A stretch of DNA of 53,846 nucleotides from an uncultured Clostridia bacterium (GTDB lineage: Bacteria > Bacillota > Clostridia > Oscillospirales > Acutalibacteraceae), in the NCBI GenBank assembly GCA_947165755.1, contig CAMVBR010000001.1, positions 1-53,846 on the forward strand, written 5' to 3'. The translations under genes and the position numbers were made by a program. Of this stretch, positions 19,233-35,810 are shown piece by piece. A model generated the notes under the pieces. That model was not told the origin of the DNA. It was given only the letters and a program-made list of their open reading frames with translations, and ran no database searches. The stretch's first letter is position 1; each line of letters opens with the position of its first letter.

Positions 19233-19242
19233 CAGGACGAGG

Positions 19243-19271
19243 TTGACATAAAATCGGCTGTTTGCTATAAT
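19243..19271 (+). promoter_or_regulatory. Consensus SigA-type promoter for the VTC/DUF4956/rSAM operon
   Basis: TTGACA (19243-19248), a 17-nt spacer, then TATAAT (19266-19271). It leaves a ~130-nt leader before the ATG at 19402. Confidence 0.5.
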
Positions 19272-19401
19272 GCAGTTAAATGAAAAAGCAGAAAATTCCG
19301 GGCGTTTTGCTTTGCTTCGGTTGCATTTAAGGCGTCCGGCACTATCGTTTTGCGGGGAAAGACAAAGCCCGTCTTTGCCCGGAAGGAGGAAATCCGGCAG
19401 T

Positions 19402-20079: not shown

Positions 20080-20095
20080 TGCAGGAGGTATCATC

Positions 20096-20788: not shown

Positions 20789-20832
20789 TCCGGCGGCCTG
20801 TTCCTTAAGAGAACAGGGGGGGGAGCGCGATC

Positions 20833-22773
20833 ATGAAAAACGTATATTTCGTTCAGGTAGATATCACTGCGGACGCCGGTTCGCGCAACGTCTACCTGCC
20901 CTACACCGCCGGTTTGCTGGCGGCAAACGCCTGGACGAGCGAAGCGGTCCGGACGCGGTTTCTTCTGAAGGACTTCCTTTTTCTTCGCGATAAGATCGGC
21001 GACGTGCTTTCCTCGTTGGAAGCGCCCGCCGTTATGCTGTTCTGCTGCTACTGCTGGAACACGGAGTACAACAAAGCGCTGGCAAAGGCCGTGAAGGCGG
21101 CCTATCCCGATTGCGTGATCGTGTTCGGTGGCCATAACGTGCCCGATGATACGTCTTTTCTGGAGGCCTTTCCGTATATCGATATCCTGAGCCATGGGGA
21201 AGGGGAGGCCACCGTGAAGGCGCTTCTGGAGGCGCTGGCCCTCGGCGCGCCGCTGGCGTCTGTTTTTAACGTTTCATTCCGCACGCAAAGCGGCGAATGC
21301 GTGCATACCCCTGCCGCGCAGGCCTGCGGCACGGATTATCCGTCCCCGTATCTGGAAGGGCTGTTCGACGGTATCCTGCGGCGGTACCCCGGGATCTCCT
21401 TCAACGCCACGCTCGAAACCACCCGCGGCTGCCCGTATCACTGCGCCTATTGCGATTGGGGGCCGCTGGAATCCCGCGTGCGCATGTTTCCCATGGAGCG
21501 CGTCAAGGCCGAGATCCTTTGGATGAGCGAGCATAAGATCGCGTTTCTCTGGGAGGTGGACGCCAATTTCGGTCTGTTTGAACGGGATGCCGAAATCGCG
21601 GATTTTTTGGTGGAAACCAGAAAGCGCACCGGTTACCCGGAGCGTATGCGCGTGAATTACGCCAAAAACAACCCGCAAACGGTGTTTGAGATCACGCAGA
21701 AATTCCGGGACTGCAATTTTGACCGGGGCGGCGCAACGCTCTCGTTTCAGAGCATGTCGCCCGAGGTGCTGCGGAACATCGGCCGCACGAACCGCGATAT
21801 CGCGTTTTATAAAGCGCTTCTTACCGAATACAACCGCGAAAACATACGCACGTATTCCGAGCTGATCCTCGGGCTGCCCGGCGAAACCTACGAGAGCTTT
21901 ATCCGCGGGGTGGGCATGCTGTTTGAAATCGGGCAGCATTTCGTTTATCACGTGTTTTCGTGTATTCTGCTCCCCAATTCTCTGATGGGGCAGAAGGCGT
22001 ATATTGAAAAATACGGCATCCGTACGGTGCGCGCAAGAATAGAGAGCGCCCACGCGCGCAATGATCCCGATGAGATCCCGGAATATAACGAGGTCATCGT
22101 AGAAACCGGCACCCTGTCCAGAGCGGAATGGGTGCGGGCAAAGGCGTTCAATCTGCTCGCCACGGTGATGCACGCCTCCGGCCTGCTGCGGGTGTTTGCC
22201 GTTTATGCGTATGTGGAAAACCGCCTGCCCTACGAGCGGTTTTATAACGATATGCTTTCCTATATGGAAGCCGGCGCCGGGCTTCGGTTCCCCTCGCTTT
22301 TTATGCGGCTTGCGGCGCGCTTTGAAGCCCTGTCTCGCGCGATGCCCGTGCCGAACCTGACGTTCGCGCCGTGCGGCGACGTCGTATGGGAGGATCACGA
22401 GTATTTCGTGCTTTGCGCGCTTGCGGAGGACGACCTGTTTTACCGGGAGCTCACGCCGTTTTTGCGGCGGTTCGTGCCGGATGAGACGTTGTTTGCGGAT
22501 CTGCTTGCTTACCAGCGGGCCGTTCTGCGCCGCCCGCAGTCGGCGGAGTGCCGCCTGCATCTGCAATACGACGTACACGGGTTTATTTCGGATGCATACG
22601 TCAGCGATTTCCATCCGGTCCGATCGCGGAGGAGCCTGCTCGTTCTGCGCGATTCCGCGCCCATGCCGGATTGGCCCTCCTTCGGTAAGCAGGTGATCTG
22701 GTACGGCCGCATGGGCTGGGCCTCTTATAAGGACGATATCTCTCAGTTGCCCGCCGACGCGCCTGTGCTATGA
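20833..22773 (+). CDS. Cobalamin-binding-type (class B-like) radical SAM enzyme, ~640-aa family, module A
   Basis: GGGGGGAG RBS. MKNVYFVQV.., YLPYTAGLLAANAW, FCCYCWNTEYNKALAKAVKAAYPDCVIVFGGHNV and HGEGE. CX3CX2C at 21427-21453 (TTRGCPYHCAYCDWG), then SELILGLPGETYESF and a C-terminal VIWYGR. Confidence 0.9.
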   Translation: MKNVYFVQVDITADAGSRNVYLPYTAGLLAANAWTSEAVRTRFLLKDFLFLRDKIGDVLSSLEAPAVMLFCCYCWNTEYNKALAKAVKAAYPDCVIVFGGHNVPDDTSFLEAFPYIDILSHGEGEATVKALLEALALGAPLASVFNVSFRTQSGECVHTPAAQACGTDYPSPYLEGLFDGILRRYPGISFNATLETTRGCPYHCAYCDWGPLESRVRMFPMERVKAEILWMSEHKIAFLWEVDANFGLFERDAEIADFLVETRKRTGYPERMRVNYAKNNPQTVFEITQKFRDCNFDRGGATLSFQSMSPEVLRNIGRTNRDIAFYKALLTEYNRENIRTYSELILGLPGETYESFIRGVGMLFEIGQHFVYHVFSCILLPNSLMGQKAYIEKYGIRTVRARIESAHARNDPDEIPEYNEVIVETGTLSRAEWVRAKAFNLLATVMHASGLLRVFAVYAYVENRLPYERFYNDMLSYMEAGAGLRFPSLFMRLAARFEALSRAMPVPNLTFAPCGDVVWEDHEYFVLCALAEDDLFYRELTPFLRRFVPDETLFADLLAYQRAVLRRPQSAECRLHLQYDVHGFISDAYVSDFHPVRSRRSLLVLRDSAPMPDWPSFGKQVIWYGRMGWASYKDDISQLPADAPVL

Positions 22774-22881
22774 GCCGCCGCGCCCCTTTTTTGGAGCCTC
22801 GCGGGCTTGAGGGGAAATGACTTTGGGATGTATCGCATCGCGCGATAAATCCCAATTTCCGGATCTTTCCGCCTCCCCCAC

Positions 22882-22916
22882 GGGCAACCGCTTCGGTTGC
22901 CCTTTTTTATTTTTTT
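22882..22916 (+). terminator. Rho-independent terminator ending the VTC/DUF4956/rSAM-A operon
   Basis: GGGCAACCG-CTT-CGGTTGCCC (22882-22902), followed by TTTTTTATTTTTTT. Confidence 0.75.
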
Positions 22917-22982
22917 ATAGCCCGATCTCTGCAGCCGCCCCTCCGCCCGCGCCGCGGCGGCTGCCCTGCGCGGTTTTTCACC

Positions 22983-23011
22983 TTGACAATCAGGTGCTTT
23001 GATGGTAAAAT
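22983..23011 (+). promoter_or_regulatory. SigA-type promoter (extended -10) for the long sugar/rSAM operon
   Basis: TTGACA (22983-22988), a 17-nt spacer ending in TGg, then TAAAAT (23006-23011). The ATG is at 23050. Confidence 0.55.
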
Positions 23012-23049
23012 TATAAAGGTTAACTATAAGGGGAAAAGGGCTGATTTTT

Positions 23050-23985
23050 ATGGCAAATATCCTGATTACCGGCGGCGCGGGCTACATCGGCTCGGTGCTC
23101 ACCCCCATGCTGCTCGAAGCGGGGCACGAGGTCACGGTGCTGGATTCGTTTTTATATAAGCAGAATTCGCTGCTGGACTGCTGCAAATATAAGTCGTTTC
23201 ATATCGTGAACGGCGACGCACGCGATGTGGATACCCTCAAAAAGGTGCTGCCGGGCAAGGATTTCATCTTCCCGCTGGCGGCGCTGGTGGGCTTTCCCGT
23301 GTGCGATAAAGATAAAACGGCGGCCGTCACCGTGAATCAGGGGGCGGTGGAAACCCTGCTTTCGCTGCGTTCGCCCGAACAAAAGGTGATCTTTCCCTGC
23401 ACCAACAGCGGCTACGGTCTGGGGCAGGGGCAGGCTTACTGCACCGAGGAATCTCCTATTTCTCCCATTTCGCTTTACGGCAAAACCAAAATGGCGGCGG
23501 AAAAAGCCGTTCTGGAGGCGGGCAACAGCGTCACCTTCCGGTTCGCTACCCTCTTCGGCGCCTCGCCCCGTATGCGCACCGACCTGCTGGTGAACGATTT
23601 CGTCTACCGCGCCGTGTTCGACCGGGCGCTGCTGGTGTTCGAGGGGCAGTTCAAGCGCAATTTCCTCCACGTGCGCGACGCCGCCGCCGCTTTTATGTTC
23701 GCCATGGAGCATTTCGACGAAATGAAGGGGCAGACCTACAACTGCGGCCTTTCGGACGCCAATCTCAGCAAGCTGGAGCTGTGCGCCGAGATCAAAAAAC
23801 AGCTTCCCGCGTTCGTATATATCGAAGCCCCCGTGGGCACGGACCCCGATAAGCGCGATTATATCGTCTCCAACGCCAGGATCGAGGCGCTGGGCTACCG
23901 CCCCCGGTATTCGCTGGCGGATGGGATCGAAGAGCTCACGAAGGTGTACTCCATTATCAAGAATTCATTCTACGGGAACGTGTGA
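23050..23985 (+). CDS. NAD-dependent sugar epimerase/dehydratase (extended SDR)
   Basis: ILITGGAGYIGS Rossmann motif and a YGKTK (YxxxK) catalytic motif; 311 aa. Confidence 0.9.
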   Translation: MANILITGGAGYIGSVLTPMLLEAGHEVTVLDSFLYKQNSLLDCCKYKSFHIVNGDARDVDTLKKVLPGKDFIFPLAALVGFPVCDKDKTAAVTVNQGAVETLLSLRSPEQKVIFPCTNSGYGLGQGQAYCTEESPISPISLYGKTKMAAEKAVLEAGNSVTFRFATLFGASPRMRTDLLVNDFVYRAVFDRALLVFEGQFKRNFLHVRDAAAAFMFAMEHFDEMKGQTYNCGLSDANLSKLELCAEIKKQLPAFVYIEAPVGTDPDKRDYIVSNARIEALGYRPRYSLADGIEELTKVYSIIKNSFYGNV

Positions 23986-23986
23986 T

Positions 23987-24352
23987 ATGGAACTGATCAG
24001 GATCCTCACACCCGATTTCGTATATCCGGACGACCGCGGTCTGCTGGTGCAGCTCTGCCGCGGCGGCTACCGTCAGATCAACGCCGTGTTCACCAGAAAG
24101 GGCGCGGTGCGCGGCAATTGGCATTACCACGCCCACACGGACGAGGCCTTCTTCATCCTCTCCGGCCGCATCCGCCTCACCGCCCGCAAAGACGGCGTTA
24201 CCGAGGAACGCGAATTTACCACAGGGGATATGTTCCTCATCCCCGCAAACGTGCGCCATACCTTCGTGTATCTGGAGGATACCTACCTTGTGGGCATGTA
24301 CACCGCCGGCGTGGAAAACCCCGACGGCACGAAGGATATCCTTACCGACTGA
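23987..24352 (+). CDS. Cupin-fold protein (WxcM/polysaccharide-biosynthesis C-terminal-domain-like)
   Basis: Track ORF 23921-24352 trimmed to MELIRIL.., 1 nt after the upstream TGA. DDRGLL, VRGNWHYHAHTDEAFFILSGRIRL and a later FLIPANVRH cupin motif. Confidence 0.7.
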   Translation: MELIRILTPDFVYPDDRGLLVQLCRGGYRQINAVFTRKGAVRGNWHYHAHTDEAFFILSGRIRLTARKDGVTEEREFTTGDMFLIPANVRHTFVYLEDTYLVGMYTAGVENPDGTKDILTD

Positions 24353-24375
24353 TTTTTTTTTGAACAGGAAACCGA

Positions 24376-26295
24376 ATGAGCAAGCTTAACGTCTGTCTGG
24401 CACAGCCCAGCTATATGAGTTCCAACTCCGCGCCCTTCCCCGCAGCGATCGGCGCGTTGGCGGCCTATGCCTGGAGCTTTGCGGATATCGACGATGCTTT
24501 CCTCCTGAAGGAGATTATCTTTCAGCGGGAGCCGCAGGCTTCTCTGCTCGCGCGGCTGGAAAATCCCGCCGTGTTCGGCTTTTCCTGCTATATGTGGAAT
24601 ATCGAGTATAACAAGCTGCTGGCGAAAAAGGTGAAGGAGAAATTCCCCGGCTGCCTGATCGTGTTCGGCGGGCCGCAGGTGCCCGAGGGCGCGGCGCTGC
24701 TGGAAAGCTGCCCGTGGATCGACCTGCTCCTGCACGGCGAAGGGGAGGTCACCTTTGCCGCGGTGCTGCGGGCGCTGCGGGACGGCGCCGGCTTCGGCGG
24801 GATCCCCAACCTCTCGCTCCGGGTGAACGGCGTTCCCGTCAACACGCGGGCGGAAAGCTGCTGCAGGGTGGATTTTCCCTCCCCGATCACCTCGGGCTTT
24901 TTCGACCGGCTCCTGCGTGAAAACCCCGGGCTGGAATTCACCCCGCTGGTGGAATCGAGCCGGGGCTGCCCCAACCACTGCGCCTACTGCAGCTGGGGCA
25001 ACAAAGAGACCGGCATGCGGCTGTTCCCGCTGGAGCGCGTATTCGCCGATCTGGAGTGGATCAGCGCGCATCATATGGAATACGTGGGCTTCGCCGATTC
25101 CAATTTCGGCATGTTCCCGCGGGATGAAAAGATCACCGATAAAATACTGGAGCTGCACGAAACGTACGGCTATCCCAAAAAGTTTCAGGTGTCCTACGCC
25201 AAGGATTCCGGCGAGCGGGTGTACCGCATCACCGAAAAGCTGAACGCGGCGGGCCTGTGCAAGGGCGTTACGCTCTCGTTCCAGACCATGTCCCCGGCGG
25301 CGCAGAAGAACATCGGCCGCTCCAACATGGATATCGAATTCTATAAAGCCCTGCTGCAAAAATACGGCGACGCGGGCATCGTCACCTATTCCGAGCTGAT
25401 CCTCGGTCTGCCGGGCGAAACCGCCGAAAGCTTTATCGACGGCATCGAGCAGCTGCTGGAATACGGCCAGCACACGCAGATGATGATCCACCTGTGCGAG
25501 TGGCTGCCCCTTTCCCCCATGGGAGAAAAAGCCTATCTTGAAAAATACGGCATAAAATATATCGAGATCCCCTTGAACCAGCCCCACGCCAACCTGCAAA
25601 CGGAGGATGAGGCCCCTGAGCGCTCCCACGTGGTGGTATCCACCGATACCATGACCGCCGAAGAATGGAAGCGCGTCACCCTGTTCGGCATGTGCGTGTT
25701 GTGCTTCCACCATCTGGGCCTCCTGCAGCTCCCCGCGCTGTATCTGTATTTTGAGCAGGGCGTGAAATACGTCGATTTCTACGGCGAGCTGCTTCGGTAT
25801 TATATGGCGAAGGGCGATTCGGTTTTCAACCGCATCGAGCGGCAGCTTGCCGGTATGCTCACGGGCGATTCCGGCGCCGTGATCCTTGACGGGCGCTTCG
25901 GCAAGGTGAGCTGGACCTTCGAGGAATACGCCTTTCTCTCCACCGTATATGAAAAAGAGGCCTTCTACCGAGAGATGGACGGCTTTTTATCCCGCTATAT
26001 CCCAAACGCCGCCTTCCGCGCCGAAATGCTGGCGTACCAGTCCTTTATGGTGAAAACCGTGGGGCGGCCCGCATCGTCGTTTACCGGCAATTACGACTGG
26101 CGTTCATATTTTCTTTCACTGCGCCGCAACCGGAGGATGCCGCTGGTAAAGCGCCCGGTCCGCTATACCGTAACGGACGATCTCATTTGCGCCGATTGGC
26201 CCGAATACGCCCGTAAGGTGGTCTGGTACGGCCGCCGCGGCGGCAAAAACCTGTATACCGCAGAGATCGGGGAGGCAGCACCGGATGGAAAATGA
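24376..26295 (+). CDS. Cobalamin-binding-type radical SAM enzyme, ~640-aa family, module B
   Basis: FSCYMWNIEYNKLLAKKVKEKFPGCLIVFGGPQV and HGEGE. CX3CX2C at about 24961-24999 (SSRGCPNHCAYCSWG), then SELILGLPGETAESF and a C-terminal VVWYGR. Confidence 0.9.
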   Translation: MSKLNVCLAQPSYMSSNSAPFPAAIGALAAYAWSFADIDDAFLLKEIIFQREPQASLLARLENPAVFGFSCYMWNIEYNKLLAKKVKEKFPGCLIVFGGPQVPEGAALLESCPWIDLLLHGEGEVTFAAVLRALRDGAGFGGIPNLSLRVNGVPVNTRAESCCRVDFPSPITSGFFDRLLRENPGLEFTPLVESSRGCPNHCAYCSWGNKETGMRLFPLERVFADLEWISAHHMEYVGFADSNFGMFPRDEKITDKILELHETYGYPKKFQVSYAKDSGERVYRITEKLNAAGLCKGVTLSFQTMSPAAQKNIGRSNMDIEFYKALLQKYGDAGIVTYSELILGLPGETAESFIDGIEQLLEYGQHTQMMIHLCEWLPLSPMGEKAYLEKYGIKYIEIPLNQPHANLQTEDEAPERSHVVVSTDTMTAEEWKRVTLFGMCVLCFHHLGLLQLPALYLYFEQGVKYVDFYGELLRYYMAKGDSVFNRIERQLAGMLTGDSGAVILDGRFGKVSWTFEEYAFLSTVYEKEAFYREMDGFLSRYIPNAAFRAEMLAYQSFMVKTVGRPASSFTGNYDWRSYFLSLRRNRRMPLVKRPVRYTVTDDLICADWPEYARKVVWYGRRGGKNLYTAEIGEAAPDGK

Positions 26296-27010
26296 ATACA
26301 GCCTTTCGGTGCTGATCTGCGCCACCGACGAAACCTTTTCCCTGGAGCGTACCTTCCGTAAGCTGGACGCCGTCGGCGCGGCGGACGAGTACCTGTTCGT
26401 TCTTTCGAAAACCTGCGCGCCGGAATGCCTTGCCACGGTGGAGCGCCTGTGCGCGCGCGCGGACTGCCGCTGGATGTACCAGAGCGAAACGGGGCTCGGC
26501 AACGCCGTACGGGATTCCTTTGCCGTGGTGCGGGGCACGCATCTCGCCCTGTGGAGCGCCGACGAGGCCACCGACGCCGCCTCCTTCCCCGAAATGGCGC
26601 GGCTTTCCAGAGAAAACCCCGATAAGATCGTGAAGATCAGCCGCTGGCTGCACCCCGACGGTTTTGAAGGCTACGGTCGTCTGAATAAAATGCTCAATTA
26701 TATCTCGCAGCGCGCGTTCGGTCTCATGTTCCGTTCCCGGCTCACCGAGTTCACCAACCCCACGCAGATCGCCCCCGTGGCGGTCTACCGCCGCATCCGC
26801 TGGCAGCATACCGGCTTCGATTTTCTGCCCGAAATGATCTTCAAGCCCTTGAAGCTGGGCGTGGGATTTATCGAGGTCCCCACCAAAAACGTTCCCCGCG
26901 AGGAGGGCCGTTCGGGCAACACGCTGCTCAGCCACGTCCGTTACTACCGTACCATTCTGCAGATCTTCTTCACAAAGCCGGAGGATCTGGTTGAGGAGGC
27001 AAAGCCGTGA
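26285..27010 (+). CDS. GT2-like glycosyltransferase (weak call)
   Basis: 241-aa ORF overlapping the upstream stop by 11 nt. It opens with LSVLICATDETFSLERTFRKL, like GT2 N-termini. I found no clean DxD motif. Confidence 0.5.
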   Translation: MENEYSLSVLICATDETFSLERTFRKLDAVGAADEYLFVLSKTCAPECLATVERLCARADCRWMYQSETGLGNAVRDSFAVVRGTHLALWSADEATDAASFPEMARLSRENPDKIVKISRWLHPDGFEGYGRLNKMLNYISQRAFGLMFRSRLTEFTNPTQIAPVAVYRRIRWQHTGFDFLPEMIFKPLKLGVGFIEVPTKNVPREEGRSGNTLLSHVRYYRTILQIFFTKPEDLVEEAKP

Positions 27011-30000
27011 AAAACGTATATTTCGTTCTGGCAAACAAGTCCTACGGAAAAGCGCTGTATTTTCCGTATGCCTCCGGCTGCCTTGCGGCCTACGCCTGGG
27101 CGGATGAAGAGATCCGCAGCGAATATAACCTTGCGGGCTTCATTTATAAACGCGATCCGATCGACGTCGCTCTTGAAAAGCTGAAGGATCCCGACGTGGT
27201 GGCCTTTTCCTGCTACATGTGGACCATTGAGTATAATAAGCTGCTGGCCGCCGCCCTGAAAGAAAAATATCCCGATTGCCTCATTCTGTTCGGCGGGCAC
27301 GAGATCTCCCACCGGAGCGAGCTTTCCGCCTATCCCTACGTGGATCTGTTCACCTTCGGCGAAGGGGAGATCCCCTTCAAAAAGCTGCTGCTGGCCGTAA
27401 AGCGGGGCGAGCCGCTCACTGTGGTGCCCAACAGCGCCGTACGCACGGAAAACGGCGTGGTATTCACCGAAAAAGAGGTGTATAAGGCCCTCGATTATCC
27501 CTCGCCCTATACCACCGGCGTGTTCGACGGCATCATTGCCGAAAACCCCGGCGTGGAATTCGACGTCACCATAGAAACCAACCGGGGCTGCCCCTATATG
27601 TGCGCCTACTGCGACTGGTGCTACGTGCCGCAGGTGCGCCCCTTCCCCATGGAGAAGGTCAAGGCCGAGATCGACTGGTGCGCCGATCACAAGGTGGAAT
27701 ATATCTACAACGCGGATGCCAACTTCGGCATCCTCCCGCGCGATTACGAGATCGCCGAATACGCGGTTCAGGTGAGCAGGCGCACCGGCTTCCCGCAGGT
27801 GTTCAACGCCTGCTACGCCAAAAACAGCAACGATAATGTGTTCGCCATCTCCAAGCTGCTGTACGATAACAAGATCAACAAGGCCATCACGCTGGCCTAC
27901 CAGACCGTATGTGACCGTGCGCTCAGGAACGTGAACCGCACCAACTTCACCATGGAGGCCTTCGCCGATCTGGTGCACCGCTACAACGAGCACGGCATCC
28001 CCACCTATACCGAGCTCATCATGGGCCTGCCCGGCGAAACCTACGATAGCTTCTGCGAGGGCATCTGCAAGCTCATCGAGGCGGGGCAGCACAACGCCAT
28101 GACCGTATACGGCTGTCAGGTGTTCCAGAACGCCCTCATGGCCACAAAGGAATACCGCGAAAAATTCGGCATCGTCACCGCGCACGTCAAGCAGGGCAGC
28201 GTGCATTCCTCGCCCCTGCCCCCCGGCGAGATCCAGGAATATACCGATCTTGTGATCGCCACCAACGATATGCCCTTCGACGATATGATCCGCTCGCTCA
28301 TGTTCTGCACCTGCGTGCAGGGCTTCCACCATATCGGCATGCTCAAATGCTTCGCCATTTACATGCGGCAGGAAAAGGGCATGCCCTATATCGAATTTTA
28401 CCGTAAGCTGCTCGGCTTCATCTACGCCGCCGAGGGCACCTTCCTGAACCGGCTTTTCAAACGCTTCGAGGCGGAATGCCGCGATCTGAGCCACGGCGAA
28501 TGGACCTACGTCAGCGAGGAATTCGGCGATATCGGCTGGTATTACGACGAAGGCCTCTTTATGGAGACCGCCAAGCACTACGACGAATTCTGGGCCGAGA
28601 TCCCGCCGTTCCTGGCCTCCCTCGGGCTGGAGGACGAAATGCTCCGGGAGCTCAGCCGCTATCAGCGGACTATGATCCGGCTTCCGAACCAGTCCCACGT
28701 ACGCGAGCATTTTGCTTACGATTTCACCTCCTATTTCCGCTCTGCGCTGGAGTTAAAGCCCGTGCCGCTGAAAAAACGCGGCAACACCGTGGATATCGTC
28801 ATCCCGAACCCGGTTTACGACTGGCACGCCTACAGCCGTCAGGTGATGCTGTTCGCAAAAAAGAAGAGTGCCACGCTTCTGTTCAAGGATATTCAGAACG
28901 AGGTCCGCGTGATCTACGACGACCCCGCCGGGGCCGCCGACGCAAAAAAAAACGTATATTTTATTCAGGTGAATGATTTTTACGGCAACGAGCGCAAAAG
29001 CGCCTACCTGCCCTACGCGGCGGGCTGCATTCAGGCCTACTGCATGCAGGATGCCGATATCGCTGCGCGCTGCCGTTTCGGGCGGATCGTATACTACCGC
29101 GAGGATCCCGACGCGATTGCCGCCCGGTTTGAAGACCCCTATATGGTGCTGTTTTCGTGCAGCGTATGGAATACCGAATTCAACAAGGCGCTGGCAAAGG
29201 CGGTCAAGCGCCGATACCCCGGGTGCTTCATCGTATTCGGCGGGCACCACGTCTCCTCCGATCTCTCGTTTTTGGCGGAAAATCCCACGGTAGATTTCGT
29301 TACCCACAATGCCGGCGAGGAGCCCACCGCGCTGCTGCTGAAGAGCCTGCTGCTGGGGCGGCCCCTGTCTGAGGTGCCGAATCTTTCCTACCGCGCGCCG
29401 GACGGCAGCGCCGTGACCACGCCCATCCTGCCCCAGACCGGCAGCGATTACCCCTCGCCCTATCTTGCGGGCGTGTTCGATGACCTGCTTTCGGACGACG
29501 TGGAATTCTCGATGGTGTTCGAAACCAACCGGGGCTGTCCCAATTCCTGCACCTTCTGCGATTGGGGTCAGCTCAAGAGCAAGGTGCGCCTGTTTCCGCT
29601 GGAGCGGGTGTTTGCCGAACTGGACTGGATGGTGGCGCATAAGATCGAATACGTTTACTGCGCCGACGCCAACTTCTGCCTGTTCAGCCGGGATGAACAG
29701 ATCGTAGACCGTGTGGTGGAATATAGCCGCAAATACGGCTATCCCAAAATATTCCACGTCAATTTTACGAAGAACCGCACCGATTTTGTGTTCGATATCT
29801 CCTCCAGAATGATCCGCAACGGGCTCTCCAAGGCGCAGACCATCGCGTTTCAGAGCATGGACCCCACCGTGCTCTCCAATATCGGCAGGCAGAATATGTC
29901 GCCGGCGCATTTCCGGTCGCTCATGCGCCGCTTCAACGAGAACCACATCGCCACCTATTCCGAGCTGATCCTCGGGCTGCCCGGGGAAACCTACCGCAGC

Positions 30001-30879
30001 TTCTGCAGCGGCATGTGCCGCCTGATCGAATATGGGCAGCATTTCGCCGTATACGTCTACCCCTGCGAGATCTTTCCCAATTCCGAGATGTCGCAAAAAT
30101 ATTACCGTGAGAAATATCAGGTCGGCAGCACCCGCGTGCCTTTTCTGCTGATGCATACCAGCGCCGTTCCGGCGCCCGGGGCCGTGCGGGAATACGTGGA
30201 GCTGCTCACCTCCACCTATTCCATGAACACCGAGGATTGGGCCCGGTCCTATCTGTTCGCTGCTTTCGTGCAGGCCATGCACAATCTGGGCTTCACCCGC
30301 TGCCTTGCCATCTATCTGCGCTGCGCCCACGGCTTTTCCTACGAGCGCTTTTACGAAGGTCTCATCGACCGCGCGCGGCAGGCGGAGGGCACGTTCCTGC
30401 ACACGCTCTATGAGCGGATCTTCGCCCTGTGTATGGGTGTGGCCGCCGGCGTCAATTCCTTTATGGCCCCCTGCGAGGGGACGGACGACATTCTCTGGAG
30501 CTTTGAAGAGATCGTCGGCATCGAGATCGTGCGGCAGCTGGACCGCTTTTATAGTGAGCTCCGCGCATGGCTCGGCTCCCTCTTCGGCGGCGATCCGGTG
30601 CTGGAGCCGCTGTTCGGTTACCAATACGGTATCATCAAGAAGCCCGGCCTCAGCCAGGTCGAGATCGTTTCGGACTACGATTTTTATTCGTATTTCAACG
30701 CGGTGTATCTGAACGATCCGCAGCCGCTTGAGAAAAAGCCGATCCGCATCACCGTAGCCGATCCACATCCGGTGGATTCCCTCGCCGCCTACGCGCGCGA
30801 AACCATCTGGTACGGCCGCAACCGGCAGGAGACCGATTATACCTCGCACCACTACAACGCCCGCGTTACCGGCGTATAA
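27007..30879 (+). CDS. Two-module fusion of cobalamin-binding-type radical SAM enzymes (modules C1 + C2, 1290 aa)
   Basis: GTG start in a GTGA overlap with the upstream stop. C1 has KNVYFVLAN.., FSCYMWTIEYNKLLAAALKEKYPDCLILFGGHEI, FGEGE and TNRGCPYMCAYCDWC (about 27583-27620). C2 starts at about 28945 with KKNVYFIQV.., FSCSVWNTEFNKALAKAVKRRYPGCFIVFGGHHV and TNRGCPNSCTFCDWG (about 29531-29568). Both carry ELI[ML]GLPGETY.SF; C2 ends with TIWYGR. Confidence 0.9.
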   Translation: MKNVYFVLANKSYGKALYFPYASGCLAAYAWADEEIRSEYNLAGFIYKRDPIDVALEKLKDPDVVAFSCYMWTIEYNKLLAAALKEKYPDCLILFGGHEISHRSELSAYPYVDLFTFGEGEIPFKKLLLAVKRGEPLTVVPNSAVRTENGVVFTEKEVYKALDYPSPYTTGVFDGIIAENPGVEFDVTIETNRGCPYMCAYCDWCYVPQVRPFPMEKVKAEIDWCADHKVEYIYNADANFGILPRDYEIAEYAVQVSRRTGFPQVFNACYAKNSNDNVFAISKLLYDNKINKAITLAYQTVCDRALRNVNRTNFTMEAFADLVHRYNEHGIPTYTELIMGLPGETYDSFCEGICKLIEAGQHNAMTVYGCQVFQNALMATKEYREKFGIVTAHVKQGSVHSSPLPPGEIQEYTDLVIATNDMPFDDMIRSLMFCTCVQGFHHIGMLKCFAIYMRQEKGMPYIEFYRKLLGFIYAAEGTFLNRLFKRFEAECRDLSHGEWTYVSEEFGDIGWYYDEGLFMETAKHYDEFWAEIPPFLASLGLEDEMLRELSRYQRTMIRLPNQSHVREHFAYDFTSYFRSALELKPVPLKKRGNTVDIVIPNPVYDWHAYSRQVMLFAKKKSATLLFKDIQNEVRVIYDDPAGAADAKKNVYFIQVNDFYGNERKSAYLPYAAGCIQAYCMQDADIAARCRFGRIVYYREDPDAIAARFEDPYMVLFSCSVWNTEFNKALAKAVKRRYPGCFIVFGGHHVSSDLSFLAENPTVDFVTHNAGEEPTALLLKSLLLGRPLSEVPNLSYRAPDGSAVTTPILPQTGSDYPSPYLAGVFDDLLSDDVEFSMVFETNRGCPNSCTFCDWGQLKSKVRLFPLERVFAELDWMVAHKIEYVYCADANFCLFSRDEQIVDRVVEYSRKYGYPKIFHVNFTKNRTDFVFDISSRMIRNGLSKAQTIAFQSMDPTVLSNIGRQNMSPAHFRSLMRRFNENHIATYSELILGLPGETYRSFCSGMCRLIEYGQHFAVYVYPCEIFPNSEMSQKYYREKYQVGSTRVPFLLMHTSAVPAPGAVREYVELLTSTYSMNTEDWARSYLFAAFVQAMHNLGFTRCLAIYLRCAHGFSYERFYEGLIDRARQAEGTFLHTLYERIFALCMGVAAGVNSFMAPCEGTDDILWSFEEIVGIEIVRQLDRFYSELRAWLGSLFGGDPVLEPLFGYQYGIIKKPGLSQVEIVSDYDFYSYFNAVYLNDPQPLEKKPIRITVADPHPVDSLAAYARETIWYGRNRQETDYTSHHYNARVTGV

Positions 30880-30895
30880 GCATTGGAGTTCACTC

Positions 30896-32800
30896 ATGAA
30901 AAACGTTTATTTCGTACAGGTCGGCTTCGGGTTCGACGGCTCCGTGTACCTGCCCTACGGGGTGGGCACGCTGCTGGCGAACTGCAGGCGCTATGAAGAG
31001 ATCACCCGGGAATACGCGTTCCCTGATATCGTCTTTTTCCGCGAAAAGCTGGCCGACGCCATGGAAAAGCTGCGGGAGCCCTATCTCGTGGCCTTTTCGT
31101 GCAGCGTATGGAATATGGAATATAATAAAGCGCTGGCCGCCCGCATCAAAGAAAAATATCCCGATTGCCTCGTTTCCTTCGGCGGCCACAGCGTGCGGGC
31201 GGACGGCTCCTTGCTGCGCGAGCTGCCCCAGGTGGATATCCTGAACTTCGGCGAAGGCGAAGAGGTCTTCGCGCAGCTGCTCATCGCCCTTTCCAAGGGG
31301 GATATCACCGGCGTGCCCTCCATCGCCTACCGCAGCGCCGCCGGTGAGGTCGTGTGTACGCCCCGCGCGCCGCTGTGCGATCTGAACGCGCTGCCCTCGC
31401 CCTATCTTACCGGGGTGTTCGATCCTCTGCTGGAGCGGTACCCCGAATTCGAGTTCCTCTCGGTGCTCGAAACCAACCGCGGCTGCCCCTATAACTGCGC
31501 CTACTGCGATTGGGTCACCGATAAGCGCATGCGCTTTTTCCCCATGGAGCGGGTGAAGGCCGAGATCCGCTGGCTGGGCGAGCATAAGATCGCCTACTGC
31601 TTCTGCGGCGATTCCAATTTCGGCATGTTTGAGCGCGACGTGGAGATCGCCGAATATCTGGTAGCCACCAAGCGGGAGCTGGGCTACCCCGAGGTGTTCC
31701 GCCCCTGCTACGAAAAGAACAGCGCCGACCGGGTATTTCAGATCTGCTCCATCCTGAACCGCGAGGGCATGGATAAGGGCGCCACGCTTGCGTACCAGAC
31801 CCTCTCCGAGGAGGCGCTGCGCAACATCGGCCGCAAAAACCTCACCATGGAGCACTTCTCCGGTCTCGTCAAACGCTACAACGAGGCCGGCATCCCCGCC
31901 TATTCCGAGCTCATTCTCGGCCTGCCCGGCGAAACGCTCGAAAGCTTCTGCCGCGGCATCTGCCGCCTGCTCGAGAGCGGGCAGCACAACTCCCTGAGCG
32001 TGTATCACTGCGAAATGCTGCCCAACGCGGAAATGAGCGACCCCGCCTATATCGAAAAATACGGCATCAACGTGATCAAGGTGGGCTTCAACCATATCCA
32101 CAGCGCCCCCGAGCGGGATGAAGAGGTGCCGGAGTATTCCTATCTCATCCGCTCCACCGACTCGCTCAGCCCCGAGGACTGGGTGCGGGCCAATCTGTTT
32201 TCGGTATGCGTGCAGTGCTTCCACGCGCTTGGCATTCTGCGCTATTTCGCCATTTACCTGTATACCGAGCAGGGCGTCAGCTACTACGATTTCTATAAGG
32301 ACCTGCTCGCCTATATCATGGACGGCAGCGGTATGCTGCACGACCTGTGGATGCAGTTCCGTGAAAAATACGAATCCAACCTTTCCGGCGAGTGGAATTA
32401 CCACAACCCCGCCTTCGGGCACGTTACGTGGTTCTTCGAGGAGGGCGCCTTCCTTGAGATCGTGCGGGATTACGCCGCCGCCGAGGCGCTGCTGGAGCCC
32501 TTTCTGAAGCGCTATCCGCTGCCGGAGGACCTTTACGGCGACCTCGGGCGGTATCAGGCCTTTATGCTGCGCAAGCCCGGCGAAACGGCCCACGCCGAAA
32601 CCTTCGCCTACGACCTGCATTCCTATTTCGAGCGCATCTTGAAGGGCGAATACGTGCCGCTGAAAAAAGAAAAAAACACCCTGCTGGTCACCCCGAAGAC
32701 CGTATATACGGATTTCTTTGAATACGCCAAGGAAACGGTGTGGTACGGCCGCCGCCGCGGCGCCTCCGTTTACGGCAGAAAAGAGATCGCCCGTTCCTGA
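30896..32800 (+). CDS. Cobalamin-binding-type radical SAM enzyme, ~640-aa family, module D
   Basis: MKNVYFVQV.., FSCSVWNMEYNKALAARIKEKYPDCLVSFGGHSV and FGEGE. TNRGCPYNCAYCDWV (about 31479-31517), then SELILGLPGETLESF and a C-terminal TVWYGR. Confidence 0.9.
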   Translation: MKNVYFVQVGFGFDGSVYLPYGVGTLLANCRRYEEITREYAFPDIVFFREKLADAMEKLREPYLVAFSCSVWNMEYNKALAARIKEKYPDCLVSFGGHSVRADGSLLRELPQVDILNFGEGEEVFAQLLIALSKGDITGVPSIAYRSAAGEVVCTPRAPLCDLNALPSPYLTGVFDPLLERYPEFEFLSVLETNRGCPYNCAYCDWVTDKRMRFFPMERVKAEIRWLGEHKIAYCFCGDSNFGMFERDVEIAEYLVATKRELGYPEVFRPCYEKNSADRVFQICSILNREGMDKGATLAYQTLSEEALRNIGRKNLTMEHFSGLVKRYNEAGIPAYSELILGLPGETLESFCRGICRLLESGQHNSLSVYHCEMLPNAEMSDPAYIEKYGINVIKVGFNHIHSAPERDEEVPEYSYLIRSTDSLSPEDWVRANLFSVCVQCFHALGILRYFAIYLYTEQGVSYYDFYKDLLAYIMDGSGMLHDLWMQFREKYESNLSGEWNYHNPAFGHVTWFFEEGAFLEIVRDYAAAEALLEPFLKRYPLPEDLYGDLGRYQAFMLRKPGETAHAETFAYDLHSYFERILKGEYVPLKKEKNTLLVTPKTVYTDFFEYAKETVWYGRRRGASVYGRKEIARS

Positions 32801-32831
32801 AATTCCGAAGTATTGTGAGAGGAGGTCGGAA

Positions 32832-34079
32832 ATGCCGAAAATAAAGCGGTTCCTGAACGCGCACCGGATCTCTTTCGGTCTGTTCGCGTTTTTGCTCGTT
32901 TACGAGATCGTCATCGGAAATAATCTCTCCCCGTGGCGGATCAGTGAAGATTTCTACGTGTTTTATATCGTTGATTTCAGCATGGGCCTCTGCTCCCGGC
33001 TGCTGCCCGGGGCCGTTTATAACCTTTTGATACATAAATACGATCCCGCCGCTGTTTCCGTCTACGTCACGGTATTGACGGTTCTTTTTTTCGCAGGGGT
33101 CTGTGTTTTGCTCGAAAAACTGCTCAAGGACACCGCCGCGAAGAACCGCGCGCTCTGCCTTGTCTTCGTGCTGCTGTTCCTCACCGGTCCCGCGTCCTTT
33201 TCCATTTTTGTGGTGGGCCTTGGCATCATGGACCTGCACTGGATGCTGCTCACGGTTCTGTTTTTTGTATTTCTTTCAAACAAACGGCTTTATTTCCTGA
33301 TCCCGCCGCTGTTTGCGCTGGGGGTGGCCGTGCACTACGGCAGTATGATCTGCTACCTGCCGCTCATGGCGATCGTGCTGCTGTATAAGATCTCCTTTGC
33401 CGAAGACCGCGCCGAGAAAAAGCTGCTCTGGGCGGTGTTTGCGCTGAGCATCGTTTTTGCCTTCGGCAGCACGGTGTACGTCATGATGTTCGAGGAGCGA
33501 AGCCTGGTTTACACCATAGAGGAATTCGACGAAATCCTTGCCGCCCGCGGCGCAAAAAAGTTTTACTATTACGATTACGAATTATATAAACAGATCGTGG
33601 GCGGGCCCAACGGCGACGTGAGCTATGAATACGTTACCGAGGCAGGCAATGTGTTTTCCCGTATGCTGCGCCACGCGATCGCTCAGATGAACACCACCTT
33701 CTCTCAGAATTTCAAAATCGGCGATCTCAAGGAGATCCTGCTGGCGATCCTTGCCGTTCTGCCCGTTTACGGCGTTGTGTTTGCCGCTTTGGGCGACCGC
33801 TTCTTCGACCATACGCAAAAAAACGGTCTGCGGAAATTCGCGCTGCTGCTGGCGCCGCTGCTGGTGCTGCTGATGCTGGTATCTCTGGTGTTCTTTTCCA
33901 CCGATACCTTCCGCTGGATCTCCCATATGTTCCTGTGTCTGATGACGTTGTTCTTTTACGCGTCGCTTCACGACGGAGAACGTCTTTGGGCGGCGGTCCG
34001 CCGCGTTTCCGAATGGGTCCCCGCGCCGGTTACCGCGCTGTTCTTAACGTATTACGCCGTGCTGGCGCCAACGATGTAA
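32832..34079 (+). CDS. Polytopic membrane protein of unknown function (D[FY]SMG family; paralog of 43054-44442)
   Basis: Track ORF 32718-34079 trimmed to MPKIKRFL.. (GAGAGGAGG upstream). Many hydrophobic segments. IVDFSMGLCSRLLPGAVYN resembles LFDYSMGFVSRAFAGEIIS in the 43054-44442 product. Confidence 0.7.
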   Translation: MPKIKRFLNAHRISFGLFAFLLVYEIVIGNNLSPWRISEDFYVFYIVDFSMGLCSRLLPGAVYNLLIHKYDPAAVSVYVTVLTVLFFAGVCVLLEKLLKDTAAKNRALCLVFVLLFLTGPASFSIFVVGLGIMDLHWMLLTVLFFVFLSNKRLYFLIPPLFALGVAVHYGSMICYLPLMAIVLLYKISFAEDRAEKKLLWAVFALSIVFAFGSTVYVMMFEERSLVYTIEEFDEILAARGAKKFYYYDYELYKQIVGGPNGDVSYEYVTEAGNVFSRMLRHAIAQMNTTFSQNFKIGDLKEILLAILAVLPVYGVVFAALGDRFFDHTQKNGLRKFALLLAPLLVLLMLVSLVFFSTDTFRWISHMFLCLMTLFFYASLHDGERLWAAVRRVSEWVPAPVTALFLTYYAVLAPTM

Positions 34080-34089
34080 AGGAGGGTTT

Positions 34090-34785
34090 ATGAAAAAGTA
34101 TTTCGCGCCGCTCTTCTTTTTGGTGTGCTGGTGCGTTTCCACGGCGGTGGACGGGCCTTTGGGACTGATCCCGGTGGCCGGGTTTGCCGCGGCGCTGGCG
34201 TGTGTGCTGCTCGTCAAAAATAAAGCCGTCTTGTTCTGCGCCGCCGGCGCGGTGTGTATCGGTATGTGCGTATATGATATCGGTTTCCTTCGTTTCGTGC
34301 CCGCGCTGGCGCTGCTGGCGGGGCGCCGCGCGGCTATGGCGCCCCTGCCGAAAAAGAAAGAAAAAAGAAGCGGCCGCTCCGACGCGGTTTATACGGCTTG
34401 CCTTGTGAGCTTGGCTGCGGCGGCTGTTCCGCTGATCGGCAATATCCGCGCGTGTGCGCAGGGCGGTTTCTCTTTTTCCGTCAGCCGCCGGTTCTGGCTG
34501 CTGCCGCTGCTCGCCGTGTATTTCATTTTTCTCTGCGCCGCAGCCCGTCGGCAGCTGAAGCGTACGCCGCTGTTCCTGCTTTACGTTTGCGGGGGCGTAT
34601 GCTTTACGGTATCCTCCGTGGGGTACGTGCTGGATCCTGTAGGCGTCCGGATGGCCGGGGTCGTATTTCCGTGGCTGCTCTTCTTTGCCGCGGCGTCGGT
34701 TTCGGGCGATCCCGCGCTGCAGGCGTTCGCGGATGGAATCAAACCGCGTTTGGGGCGTTTCCTTGATGCCCGGGAGGAAGCATGA
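34090..34785 (+). CDS. Small polytopic membrane protein, unknown function
   Basis: AAAGGAGGG RBS. 231 aa with several hydrophobic segments and a basic loop (PKKKEKRSGRS). I recognised no motif. Confidence 0.6.
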   Translation: MKKYFAPLFFLVCWCVSTAVDGPLGLIPVAGFAAALACVLLVKNKAVLFCAAGAVCIGMCVYDIGFLRFVPALALLAGRRAAMAPLPKKKEKRSGRSDAVYTACLVSLAAAAVPLIGNIRACAQGGFSFSVSRRFWLLPLLAVYFIFLCAAARRQLKRTPLFLLYVCGGVCFTVSSVGYVLDPVGVRMAGVVFPWLLFFAAASVSGDPALQAFADGIKPRLGRFLDAREEA

Positions 34786-35780: not shown

Positions 35781-35810
35781 TTGACTTTTTGTTTGCAGAT
35801 ATGATATGAT
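35781..35810 (+). promoter_or_regulatory. SigA-type promoter (extended -10) for the 35844-41564 operon
   Basis: TTGACT (35781-35786), an 18-nt spacer ending in TGa, then TATGAT (35805-35810). Confidence 0.45.

Follow-up and report, generated by a model that had tools for sequence, protein, structure and literature searches.

A window of 53,846 nt from an uncultured Clostridia bacterium of the Acutalibacteraceae (contig CAMVBR010000001.1) carries, within positions 20833-32800, five modules that are, on sequence evidence, cobalamin-type class B radical S-adenosylmethionine (SAM) enzymes of the TokK/ThnK/CysS clade. From homology and gene order we think it rather probable that these modules, working in series and with methylcobalamin, C-methylate a nucleotide-activated 4-keto-heptose intermediate by radical chemistry, which suggests a heavily C-methylated cell-surface sugar, so far undescribed. 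Clade membership was observed in sequence, in signature residues and in fold, and the catalytic motifs are intact in all copies.

Open reading frames (ORFs) were confirmed at 20833-22773 (646 aa), 24376-26295 (639 aa), 27007-30879 (1290 aa) and 30896-32800 (634 aa). Their GC content at third codon positions (GC3) is 0.73-0.81, the codon-position pattern of genuine genes; the overall GC of the window is 59%. We cut the 1290-aa protein at residue 645/646 into M3 and M4, giving five modules:

20833..22773, + strand: M1, 646 aa, TokK-like cobalamin-dependent radical SAM module, apparently co-transcribed with the VTC and DUF4956 genes and apart from M2-M5
24376..26295, + strand: M2, 639 aa
27007..28941, + strand: M3, N-terminal half of the 1290-aa fusion
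28942..30879, + strand: M4, C-terminal half of the 1290-aa fusion
30896..32800, + strand: M5, 634 aa, core member and sole module of minimal operons

An earlier note on this DNA, made from its letters, had described these four genes as five copies of one architecture, and so they proved to be. M1-M5 align end to end with pairwise identities of 36-44% (36-42% to M1, 40-44% to M5). The alignment has 121 invariant columns, including FGG, GE, ELI.GLPGE and the cysteines C200, C204 and C207 (M1 numbering); the C-terminal 250 aa hold conserved positions as well. The motifs KNVYF[VI]Q, F.C..WN.E[YF]NK, GEGE, RGCP..C..C.W, ELI[LM]GLPGET and [VI]WYGR are visible in it, with WYGR missing from M3. The cluster motif CX3CX2C is kept in all five modules and its cysteine triad in 249 of 249 copies from related loci; the loss of cluster cysteines that the note had envisaged was not seen. 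We detected no signal peptide or transmembrane (TM) segment in the radical SAM modules.

Family models agree with the assignment to class B. Pfam Radical_SAM matched all module genes above its cutoff of 29.5 bits, with scores of 40-74 bits (M1, 40.4). A B12-binding match, which the note had expected, was found in every module; M5 (36.4 bits) and M3+M4 (68 bits) pass the gathering score of 32.1, while M1 (25.3 bits) and M2 (29.0 bits) fall below it. Among NCBIfam models, NF033712 (KedN5 family; methylcobalamin-dependent radical SAM C-methyltransferases) scores best with each of the modules. In phmmer searches M5 matched TokK (7kdx) with E 6.5e-87 over residues 5-493 at ~30% identity, and CysS (9n1b) with E 3.6e-55. 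The modules thus belong to the characterised TokK/ThnK/CysS clade and not with the peptide-modifying PoyB/PoyC, which the note had named, along with CysS, as cases of iterative C-methylation. Clear orthology to an enzyme of known substrate, which the note had also considered, was not found, identity to TokK being only ~30% and the pantetheine and carrier-protein context being absent.

An AlphaFold2 (AF2) model of M5, built from 36 sequences (pLDDT 91.1, pTM 0.90), superposes in Foldseek on the full length of TokK chain 7kdx_B, with template-modelling scores of 0.92 (TMq) and 0.88 (TMt) and a root mean square deviation (rmsd) of 2.6 A over 679 columns. The score to CysS is 0.77 and that to the next fold, TsrM, just 0.50. 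Because the superposition runs over the full length, the C-terminal ~250 aa, which the note could not assign, is according to the model the third domain of TokK/CysS, that is, the TokK-type substrate-channel domain. In TokK this domain has been termed 'distinct to TokK' and, together with the N-terminal domain, forms a channel for the pantetheine arm (bioRxiv 10.1101/2021.07.10.451909); in CysS a channel of N- and C-terminal domains likewise holds the extended pantetheine tail. Searched on its own against 1.84 billion representative proteins, the C-terminal domain found 446 sequences, 211 of them at E <= 1e-10; in full-length matches it occupies residues ~400-640 of ~640-aa proteins or the C-terminal end of longer ones.

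Two tryptophans of TokK, Trp76 and Trp215, are conserved, among characterised cobalamin (Cbl) methylases, in TokK, ThnK and CysS only (bioRxiv 10.1101/2021.07.10.451909). We mapped TokK residues onto M5 through the M5/TokK sequence alignment. TokK W76, which lies beneath the corrin (W75 in CysS), corresponds to M5 W72 in the motif FSCxxWN, kept by all five modules and by 246 of 249 copies; W215, the active-site Trp after the cluster motif, corresponds to M5 W206 in CxxCDW, likewise kept by all five and by 247 of 249. The substrate-binding Arg280 of TokK, on the other hand, is replaced by R, Q, N, H and R in M1 to M5, respectively, and varies by module clade, as would be expected if different modules had different substrates or carried out different steps.

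The modules therefore share with TokK and ThnK (PDB 7kdx, 7kdy) the same three domains (a Rossmann Cbl domain, a (beta/alpha)6 radical SAM domain and the C-terminal domain), the CX3CX2C motif and both tryptophans. TokK and ThnK, which act in carbapenem C6 alkylation, add two to three methyls sequentially to one carbon. CysS (PDB 9n1b-d), of the same clade by sequence and fold and with Trp75 under the cobalt, is the iterative methylase of cystobactamid alkoxy extension, producing ethyl, isopropyl, sec-butyl and tert-butyl groups. Differences from these enzymes are as clear. TokK acts on a pantetheinylated carbapenam and CysS on a pantetheine-linked aminobenzoate, whereas the modules come without beta-lactam or pantetheine genes; one TokK carries out all steps, whereas up to five diverged paralogues are found here and eight in other loci; and the host of TokK is an actinomycete, that of the modules an anaerobic gut Firmicute.

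The copies are old. Each of M1-M5 falls in a different cluster of the family and has orthologues at 50-88% identity in other genomes, which bears out the note's impression of a well-diverged, maintained set; recent amplification or gene conversion as the origin of the five copies was rejected in view of the 36-44% identity, the five clades and the orthologues in conserved order. The near-identity of the first ~20 nt, seen already in the note, was also confirmed: the 19-mer AAAAACGTATATTTCGTTC at the 5' end is identical in M1 and M3 and matches M4 and M5 at 17 of 19 bases, while M2 differs. It codes for the first strand, KNVYFVQ, in AT-rich codons, in genes with an otherwise high GC3 of ~0.8, and probably reflects ordinary selection at translation starts rather than gene conversion.

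At the M3::M4 junction (window 28925-28965) the protein reads ...DDPAGAAD|AKKNVYFIQ, and the DNA, GCAAAAAAAAACG, contains an A9 homopolymer. M3 and M4 are fused in the window and in L001 (L numbers label the related loci compared with the window) and are separate genes in L081, L045, L047-49, L054, L060, L063, L064, L072 and L079, where a stop codon or a frame change lies between the two. The fusion is thus lineage-specific. At its beginning M4 still has AT-rich codons like those at the start of a gene standing by itself, which suggests that a stop and start were lost recently. Other double-length members of the family (1271-1283 aa) are present in a 50% representative library.

The family is large. 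Among 8000 candidates scored we observed >3700 database relatives of M5 at E <= 1e-10; those with names, from Clostridia/Oscillospiraceae metagenome-assembled genomes, are labelled just 'radical SAM protein', 'cobalamin-dependent protein' or 'putative methyltransferase'. When species-representative genomes were scanned, 283 loci could be confirmed; the 78 retrieved from among them all belong to uncultured Acutalibacteraceae, Oscillospiraceae, Ruminococcaceae and other Clostridia, many with ruminant gut or rumen sample names. In 82 loci we counted 251 module copies, and 72 of the 82 have two to eight copies within +-10 kb, the densest holding eight in 22 kb; a battery of such enzymes is thus not peculiar to the window but the rule in this bacterial family. 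The copies form 14 clusters at 45% identity and 25 at 50%, ~10 of them sizeable.

The link to sugar metabolism comes from the genes around M2-M5. From SDR1 to rSAM7 (23050-41564) neighbouring genes overlap or lie <=40 nt apart, except at two gaps of 166 and 82 nt. Apart from the modules, the genes of this stretch are as follows (SDR, short-chain dehydrogenase/reductase; GT2, family 2 glycosyltransferase; rSAM, radical SAM):

23050..23985, + strand: SDR1, 311 aa, Cj1427-type NAD-dependent nucleotide-sugar C4-dehydrogenase
23987..24352, + strand: small cupin, 121 aa, presumed keto-sugar epimerase or isomerase
26285..27010, + strand: GT2-like GT-A protein, 241 aa, soluble, its ORF overlapping M2 and M3
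32832..34079, + strand: p415, membrane protein, 415 aa, ~8 TM segments
34090..34785, + strand: p231, membrane protein, 231 aa, ~7 TM segments
34782..35678, + strand: SDR2, 298 aa, RmlD-like, presumed C4-ketoreductase closing the sugar pathway
35844..36560, + strand: sugar-1-phosphate nucleotidyltransferase, 238 aa (Pfam NTP_transferase, 61.5 bits)
36557..38029, + strand: rSAM6, B12-binding radical SAM protein of another family, 490 aa
38043..38975, + strand: GT2_38043, ArnC/GtrB/PgfS-type polyprenyl-phosphate glycosyltransferase, 310 aa, two C-terminal TM segments
39057..40037, + strand: GHMP sugar kinase of the heptose-phosphate kinase type, 326 aa
40074..41564, + strand: rSAM7, B12-binding radical SAM protein of another family, 496 aa

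SDR1 matches PDB entries 6vo6/6vo8 with E 4.1e-104 (residues 3-310 against 4-311, ~55% identity, phmmer). The cupin scores 45.7 bits with Pfam Cupin_2 and 30.4 bits with PF14667; its orthologues match PF14667 down to E 4e-9 and FdtA weakly, and its identity to the FdtA of the window is 29%. We found no match of it to dTDP_sugar_isom or to a sugar epimerase in the PDB. In related operons it always stands directly 3' of SDR1. SDR2 (Pfam RmlD_sub_bind, 66.6 bits; Epimerase, 76.2 bits) is conserved 3' of M5 in minimal and extended operons alike. For the GHMP kinase the best NCBIfam model is HddA (141 bits over the full length, cutoff 600), and its best PDB relatives, at E 1e-35 to 3e-41, are 4usk, 3k85 and 4n3o, of which 3k85 is named 'D-glycero-D-manno-heptose 1-phosphate kinase' and 4n3o 'putative heptose 7-phosphate kinase'.

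Related loci make the connection tighter. Operons with one, two or four to five modules share the flanking SDR1-cupin and SDR2 genes and can be arranged in a nested series: SDR1-cupin-M5-SDR2 with one module (L002-4, L085/86); SDR1-cupin-M4-M5-p415-(p231)-SDR2-GHMP with two (L050, L065, L080, L083/84); and the full SDR1-cupin-M2-GT2like-M3-M4-M5-p415-SDR2-GHMP in the window, L001, L045, L047-49, L054, L060, L063, L064 and L081. In L085/L086 an isolated six-gene operon, SDR1-cupin-M5-SDR2-GHMP-NTP::HAD, lies among tRNA synthetase and ribosomal genes. The equivalent of the nucleotidyltransferase (NTP) is fused there, as throughout L083-L086, to a HAD phosphatase of the GmhB type. With the GmhB models this HAD half comes close to the curated cutoffs (PRK08942, 166.8 bits, cutoff 178; TIGR00213, 147.2 bits, cutoff 149.6), and the N-terminal half scores as a mannose-1-P/heptose-1-P guanylyltransferase (HddC, 91 bits against 300). 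Kinase, bisphosphate phosphatase and guanylyltransferase are, as predicted from these matches, exactly the HddA/GmhB/HddC route to GDP-heptose. Within 9 kb of M5-clade copies the cupin was found in 26 and SDR1 in 21 of 42 cases; SDR1 accompanies 26 of 35 copies of the M4 clade and 12 of 16 of the M2 clade. Orthologues of M3 occur at 55-57% and at 86-88% identity. By synteny, then, M2-M5 appear linked to a GDP-heptose-type pathway, and a nucleotide-linked sugar is the best supported substrate class; of the targets proposed in the note, a nucleotide- or polyprenyl-linked sugar or glycan or a giant secreted protein, the sugar could be narrowed to this type of pathway, while the giant proteins are left without support as direct substrates.

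The GDP-heptose pathway of Campylobacter jejuni (HddA/GmhB/HddC, Cj1427, Cj1430, Cj1428) follows the same dehydrogenase-epimerase-reductase logic on a 4-keto intermediate, with Cj1427 oxidising GDP-heptose at C4 (PMC10680097, PMC7949155). Common to both is the type of C4-dehydrogenase (SDR1, ~55% to the 6vo6 chain); putative counterparts of HddA and of GmhB/HddC are the GHMP kinase of the heptose-phosphate type and, in the orthologous operons, the GmhB::guanylyltransferase fusion. The Campylobacter pathway differs in having no radical SAM enzyme and an RmlC-like Cj1430 in place of the 121-aa Cupin_2/PF14667 cupin; nucleotide and sugar configuration are presumed here from gene homology. Precedent for cobalamin-dependent radical C-methylation of sugar carbons is provided, in a comparison by description, by GenK, GenD1/GntE, Fms7 and MoeK5, listed as Csp3 methyltransferases in a 2026 review; these differ from the modules in being single-step enzymes of aminoglycoside or phosphoglycolipid pseudo-oligosaccharides, not nucleotide sugars, and the Trp signatures of TokK are not conserved in GenK (bioRxiv 10.1101/2021.07.10.451909).

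A consensus scan of 19000-38900 for promoter-like sites gave three top-scoring sites, all intergenic and all with an extended -10 TG; two strong terminator-like hairpins lie close to the first two:

19189-19216: terminator-like hairpin, after the giant gene and before the first promoter-like site
19243..19271, + strand: promoter-like site TTGACA-17-TATAAT, 12/12, upstream of VTC-DUF4956-M1
22882-22902: terminator-like hairpin, after M1
22983..23011, + strand: promoter-like site, 11/12, upstream of the operon from SDR1 to SDR2
35781..35810, + strand: promoter-like site, 10/12, upstream of NTP-rSAM6-GT2-GHMP-rSAM7

These sites and hairpins suggest three transcription units: VTC-DUF4956-M1 (19270-22773), SDR1-cupin-M2-GT2like-M3::M4-M5-p415-p231-SDR2 (23050-35678) and NTP transferase-rSAM6-GT2-GHMP kinase-rSAM7 (35844-41564). 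The 277-nt gap between M1 and SDR1, which contains both a promoter-like site and a hairpin, has no conserved ORF. M1 thus appears to stand in a separate unit, and its orthologues (54-59% identity in L005-L015) mostly lie in a different cassette, with other modules and a GT2-like gene; for both reasons its substrate may differ from that of M2-M5. No Rfam family reached its gathering score across the window, and hence no cobalamin riboswitch was seen, in spite of seven B12-type enzyme modules.

We propose the following course of events; methyl transfer as the chemistry, a sugar as substrate, the sequence in which the steps occur and the destination of the product are inferred from homology and gene content. 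In the activation of a heptose phosphate, the GHMP kinase at 39057, which is HddA-like, would work together with the nucleotidyltransferase at 35844 and a phosphatase of the GmhB type, the last being supplied from outside the window (in orthologous operons it is fused to the nucleotidyltransferase). SDR1, the Cj1427 homologue, would oxidise C4 and the small cupin would epimerise or isomerise the resulting 4-keto sugar, on which the radical SAM modules would then act. SAM would be cleaved reductively at the [4Fe-4S] cluster to give the 5'-deoxyadenosyl (5'-dA) radical, which would abstract an sp3 hydrogen of the sugar; the substrate radical would take the methyl of methylcobalamin, and a second SAM would re-methylate cob(I)alamin. 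M5 could be the founding step, as it is the sole module of minimal operons, with M4 next; the M2/GT2-like/M3 block might add further methyls at other carbons or, as in TokK and CysS, on the growing branch. SDR2 would reduce C4 and release the finished nucleotide sugar. The ArnC/GtrB-type GT2 (38043) could pass the sugar to undecaprenyl phosphate, and multi-pass membrane proteins of the island could then attach it, on the outer side of the cell, to a polymer or protein of the envelope. Genes that would suit such an export route are two ArnC/GtrB/PgfS-type GT2s and four paralogous 600-650-aa multi-TM proteins.

One could speculate further that the TokK-like modules of gut Acutalibacteraceae form a combinatorial set that works on GDP-4-keto-heptose, adding C-methyls or branches of the ethyl, isopropyl or tert-butyl type and producing partly hydrophobic, hyper-alkylated surface sugars, with the number of modules (one to eight) setting the degree of alkylation and strain-level glycan diversity. 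We regard this extension as quite possible, somewhat short of probable.

A number of observations tell against a methylated heptose. The functional assignments draw on homology and synteny, and promoters and terminators were called by consensus alone. In the TokK/ThnK/CysS clade every characterised enzyme uses pantetheine-tethered intermediates of secondary metabolism, not sugars (bioRxiv 10.1101/2021.07.10.451909). The scores with NF033712 (231 bits for M1, 211.5 and 261.9 for the other two single modules, 476.7 for the double one) are far from the cutoff of 700, the match being limited to profile positions up to ~400 of 624. The cupin is not of the RmlC type found in Campylobacter heptose pathways (Cj1430/MlghB). 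The window has no HAD phosphatase, its NTP transferase being of 238 aa only, so that GmhB is absent; no SIS-domain protein that could be GmhA was found among the scanned window ORFs or the Pfam-annotated contexts, and GmhA may be encoded elsewhere in the genome. We take 6vo6, which is listed only as 'putative sugar-nucleotide epimerase/dehydratase', to be Cj1427. No sugar genes occur within 10 kb of a module trio of a 41%-GC lineage or of rSAM-only islands such as L024, and a universal link of the modules to sugars was rejected on this ground. In the 41%-GC lineage (L039/L042/L051/L053/L056/L070) the conserved trio stands alone between a YetF/DUF4363 pair and a DUF218 gene; L024 (CAZTCR010000001.1) has at least six intact TokK-like genes and three other B12-binding radical SAM (B12-rSAM) genes in 22 kb with almost nothing else; and L012 and L068, which overlap on contig JAZLHN010000173.1, cover ~41 kb between them, where TokK-like modules are numerous and several B12-rSAM genes of other kinds occur as well.

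The last of these points is the active site. At the position of TokK 383, adjoining 5'-dA, all five modules (M5 C372, M1 C377) and 242 of 249 copies have Cys, where TokK has Leu383, ThnK Phe (bioRxiv 10.1101/2021.07.10.451909) and CysS Leu373. This near-invariant residue could signal a different chemistry, and it is our main reason for keeping reactions other than methylation among the alternatives considered below. A second clade-specific cysteine, M5 C91 ('YPDC'), lies in the Cbl domain of 230 of 249 copies.

Among the alternatives to methylation of a free nucleotide sugar, our second-ranked hypothesis, which we consider unlikely, is that the modules, at least M2, M3 and the other clades linked to the GT2-like gene, act on a lipid-linked sugar. 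The GT-A protein at 26285-27010 would move the sugar to polyprenyl phosphate or another phosphorylated acceptor, and the channel would bind this handle in place of the pantetheine arm, much as the TokK/CysS channel accommodates an extended pantetheine tail. The GT2-like gene is the most frequent neighbour of the modules (46 of 82 loci; the GHMP kinase, 23 of 82), its ORF overlaps M2 and M3, and within 9 kb it accompanies all 16 copies of the M2 clade; 41 of 50 M3-clade copies are near it as well. By Pfam it is a GT2 at just E 1e-3; its AF2 model (pLDDT 92.6) is closest in Foldseek to the catalytic domains of ArnC, DPMS (TMq 0.78, rmsd 2.5) and GtrB, then GpgS. However, soluble acceptors of the GpgS type suit the fold nearly as well, and catalytic competence is a prediction only. 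The protein has no predicted TM segments or obvious membrane anchor, lacking the membrane hairpins of ArnC, DPMS and GtrB, and minimal operons with M5, or with M4 and M5, do without it. Its part may be to charge a phosphorylated acceptor with the sugar, either ahead of some radical steps or following them.

Somewhat less likely still, in our estimate, is that some or all modules do not methylate but subject the sugar to some other radical chemistry assisted by cobalamin or Cys, for instance epimerisation, a C-C rearrangement, contraction of the ring or formation of a C-S or C-O bond. Radical SAM epimerases use an active-site Cys like M5 C372, which stands beside 5'-dA where proven methylases carry Leu or Phe, as hydrogen-atom donor. 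ThnL, OxsB and BchE are class B precedents for reactions of this kind, class B members with non-methylase chemistry being listed in the 2026 review, and the HpnJ-like and BchE/ApyD-like B12-rSAM proteins of the same island suggest varied radical chemistry. Yet the modules preserve the two Trp residues typical of the methylase clade along with the complete architecture of TokK, the characterised enzymes of the three-domain fold (TokK, ThnK and CysS) are all methylases, and the best NCBIfam model is a C-methyltransferase family.

That the locus makes a diffusible secondary metabolite (e.g. a heptose-containing glycoside or a nucleoside-type compound) instead of an envelope glycan seems to us very unlikely. 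The characterised relatives TokK, ThnK, CysS and KedN5 are all antibiotic tailoring enzymes, the minimal operon of L085/86 has no glycosyltransferase or export gene nearby, and close relatives vary strongly in module number. But variable gene content is equally typical of surface-glycan loci; neither the window nor the inspected loci contain polyketide synthase (PKS), nonribosomal peptide synthetase (NRPS), carrier-protein (PP-binding), beta-lactam, aglycone or resistance/efflux genes; and the pathway of the window lies amid polyprenyl-phosphate GT2s, GT-C-like membrane proteins and a second amino-sugar pathway, as in a typical surface-glycan island.

Modification of a ribosomal peptide or giant secreted protein by C-methylation of the PoyB/PoyC kind is hardly credible: the weak matches to ApyD and to the RiPP (a peptide made by the ribosome and modified after translation) methylase model TIGR03975 (49-85 bits) and the two giant secreted proteins of the window speak for it, but the TIGR03975 scores are far below the cutoff of 281.85 and below the TokK and KedN5 matches, no precursor-sized conserved ORF, peptidase or transporter was found in the window gaps (as the note had said) or in related operons, the giant proteins are exported (signal peptides) while the modules have no export signal, and self-contained operons have no candidate protein substrate. 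A RiPP or protein substrate was rejected on these grounds. No peptide, carrier-protein, CoA-ligase or peptidase genes were seen in any inspected context. Of the neighbours that the note had named for tabulation, VTC, DUF4956 and CotH, each, like the giant proteins, was found by tblastn, even at E 1e-4, in just 1-3 of 82 loci, and they were dropped as general partners, the giant proteins also as direct substrates of the radical SAM enzymes.

Returning to a methylated nucleotide sugar, the kind of enzyme is already known, and its family and likely chemistry are identifiable. What appear to be new are the recruitment to a nucleotide-sugar pathway, the massive expansion of paralogues in gut Clostridia and the clade-specific active-site Cys; our literature searches and a review of February 2026 gave nothing relevant that connects B12-rSAM enzymes with a heptose, a nucleotide sugar or a glycan. 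TokK/CysS-type methylases are otherwise known only as rare antibiotic tailoring enzymes on pantetheine-tethered intermediates. The same architecture is present in the window and in related genomes, numbering hundreds, of uncultured Clostridia that are abundant in gut and rumen, and has expanded there into about ten sizeable paralogous clades, with the M2, M4 and M5 clades wired into a nucleotide-heptose pathway. If the proposal is true, it would give bacterial sugars a new, C-alkylated class, bring the formation of C-C bonds by radicals into nucleotide-sugar metabolism and imply a large unrecognised demand for vitamin B12 in the envelope biosynthesis of gut commensals. For biocatalysis it would offer a natural panel of diverged regio- or step-specific methylases, whose dissection is eased by the nested one-, two- and five-enzyme operons; the six-gene operon of L085/L086 is a directly testable minimal system. 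Should the heptose be hyper-alkylated, iterative B12-radical alkylation would become known for the first time from the primary metabolism of glycans or nucleotide sugars, and the gut would have a major cobalamin sink that has so far stayed hidden.

The remaining genes of the third transcription unit are less informative. The best model for rSAM6 is HpnJ (153 bits against a cutoff of 578, NCBIfam), and L001 has a 72% identical orthologue. For rSAM7 the best models are ApyD, BchE and PhpK (120-138 bits), all far under cutoff; its relatives (>=35% identity) stand beside modules in many loci, with three in tandem in L024 and L012. GT2_38043 matches ArnC (2.6e-28) and GtrB (7e-28) over its full length in the PDB (phmmer), and PgfS (130 bits) and ArnC (107 bits) in NCBIfam. 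Of the membrane proteins in the second unit, p415 follows M5 in 22-28 of 82 loci and, at 27% identity, is a distant paralogue of p43054 (see below); p231 has homologues in L001, L057 and L081 and occupies the same position in L083/84 and L087. p415 has no Pfam or NCBIfam match, and neither p415, p231 nor the 600-aa membrane family has a Pfam, NCBIfam or PDB sequence match.

Other genes of the window are:

982-2838 (+), 4438-6294 (-), 6302-8275 (-) and 11553-13361 (+): paralogous membrane proteins, 600-650 aa, 7-12 predicted TM segments
2876-4342 (+) and 41628-43004 (-): CotH-domain proteins
14357-19171, + strand: giant secreted protein 1, 1604 aa, signal-anchor N-terminus
19270-20079, + strand: VTC-domain protein
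20096-20788, + strand: DUF4956 membrane protein
43054-44379, - strand: p43054, 7-TM protein, distant p415 paralogue
44806-53844, + strand: giant secreted protein 2, >3013 aa, running off the window end, signal-anchor N-terminus

The window holds three more radical SAM genes besides the modules, missed in the note, at 9439-10584 (without a B12 domain), 36557-38029 and 40074-41564 (both B12-binding). The first belongs to a second sugar pathway upstream (8375-11556, and 13646-14056 on the - strand) with a DegT/PseC-type aminotransferase, this non-B12 radical SAM protein, a GT2 and an FdtA-type 3,4-ketoisomerase. The protein, of 381 aa and with weak similarity to MoaA/viperin, is encoded directly after the aminotransferase, and the pair presumably resembles DesI/DesII. 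The GT2 of this pathway, GT2_10603, is the second full-length ArnC/GtrB/PgfS-type polyprenyl-phosphate glycosyltransferase.

The four 600-650-aa membrane proteins are 26-49% identical and have the N-terminal-loop motif DE..YY in common; from this motif and the topology one might guess, and only guess, that they are candidate GT-C-type transferases partnering the two polyprenyl-phosphate GT2s. Three-component extracytoplasmic glycosylation systems consist of a GtrB/ArnC/PgfS GT2, a flippase and a GT-C transferase. One of them, the Pgf system of S. mutans, which glycosylates surface adhesins (PMC5856776, PMC12041528), is alike in combining TM-anchored PgfS/ArnC-type GT2s, two of which occur here, with adjoining multi-pass membrane proteins. 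It differs in that the giant proteins of the window have no Ser/Thr-rich tracts and the 600-aa proteins are GT-C candidates only. Conservation of the GT2 and 600-aa membrane-protein genes alongside the modules is confined to the closest relatives.

Neither giant protein has a Pfam domain or Ser/Thr-rich disordered tracts; the one at 14357-19171 has 12% Thr and 4.2% Cys, with CxxC pairs close to its C-terminus. The order VTC-DUF4956-M1 recurs in L007, and L012 has one divergent CotH by Pfam, with a p43054-like gene adjoining the CotH gene. Phage- or defence-like genes directly flank some module cassettes (AbiH, DUF6414, Mor and DUF3846 in L083, 12242-17347; holin, Tad2-like, SH3 and an LPD23 giant protein in L087, 1-7161), which hints that some of the module loci lie in variable or mobile regions of the genome.

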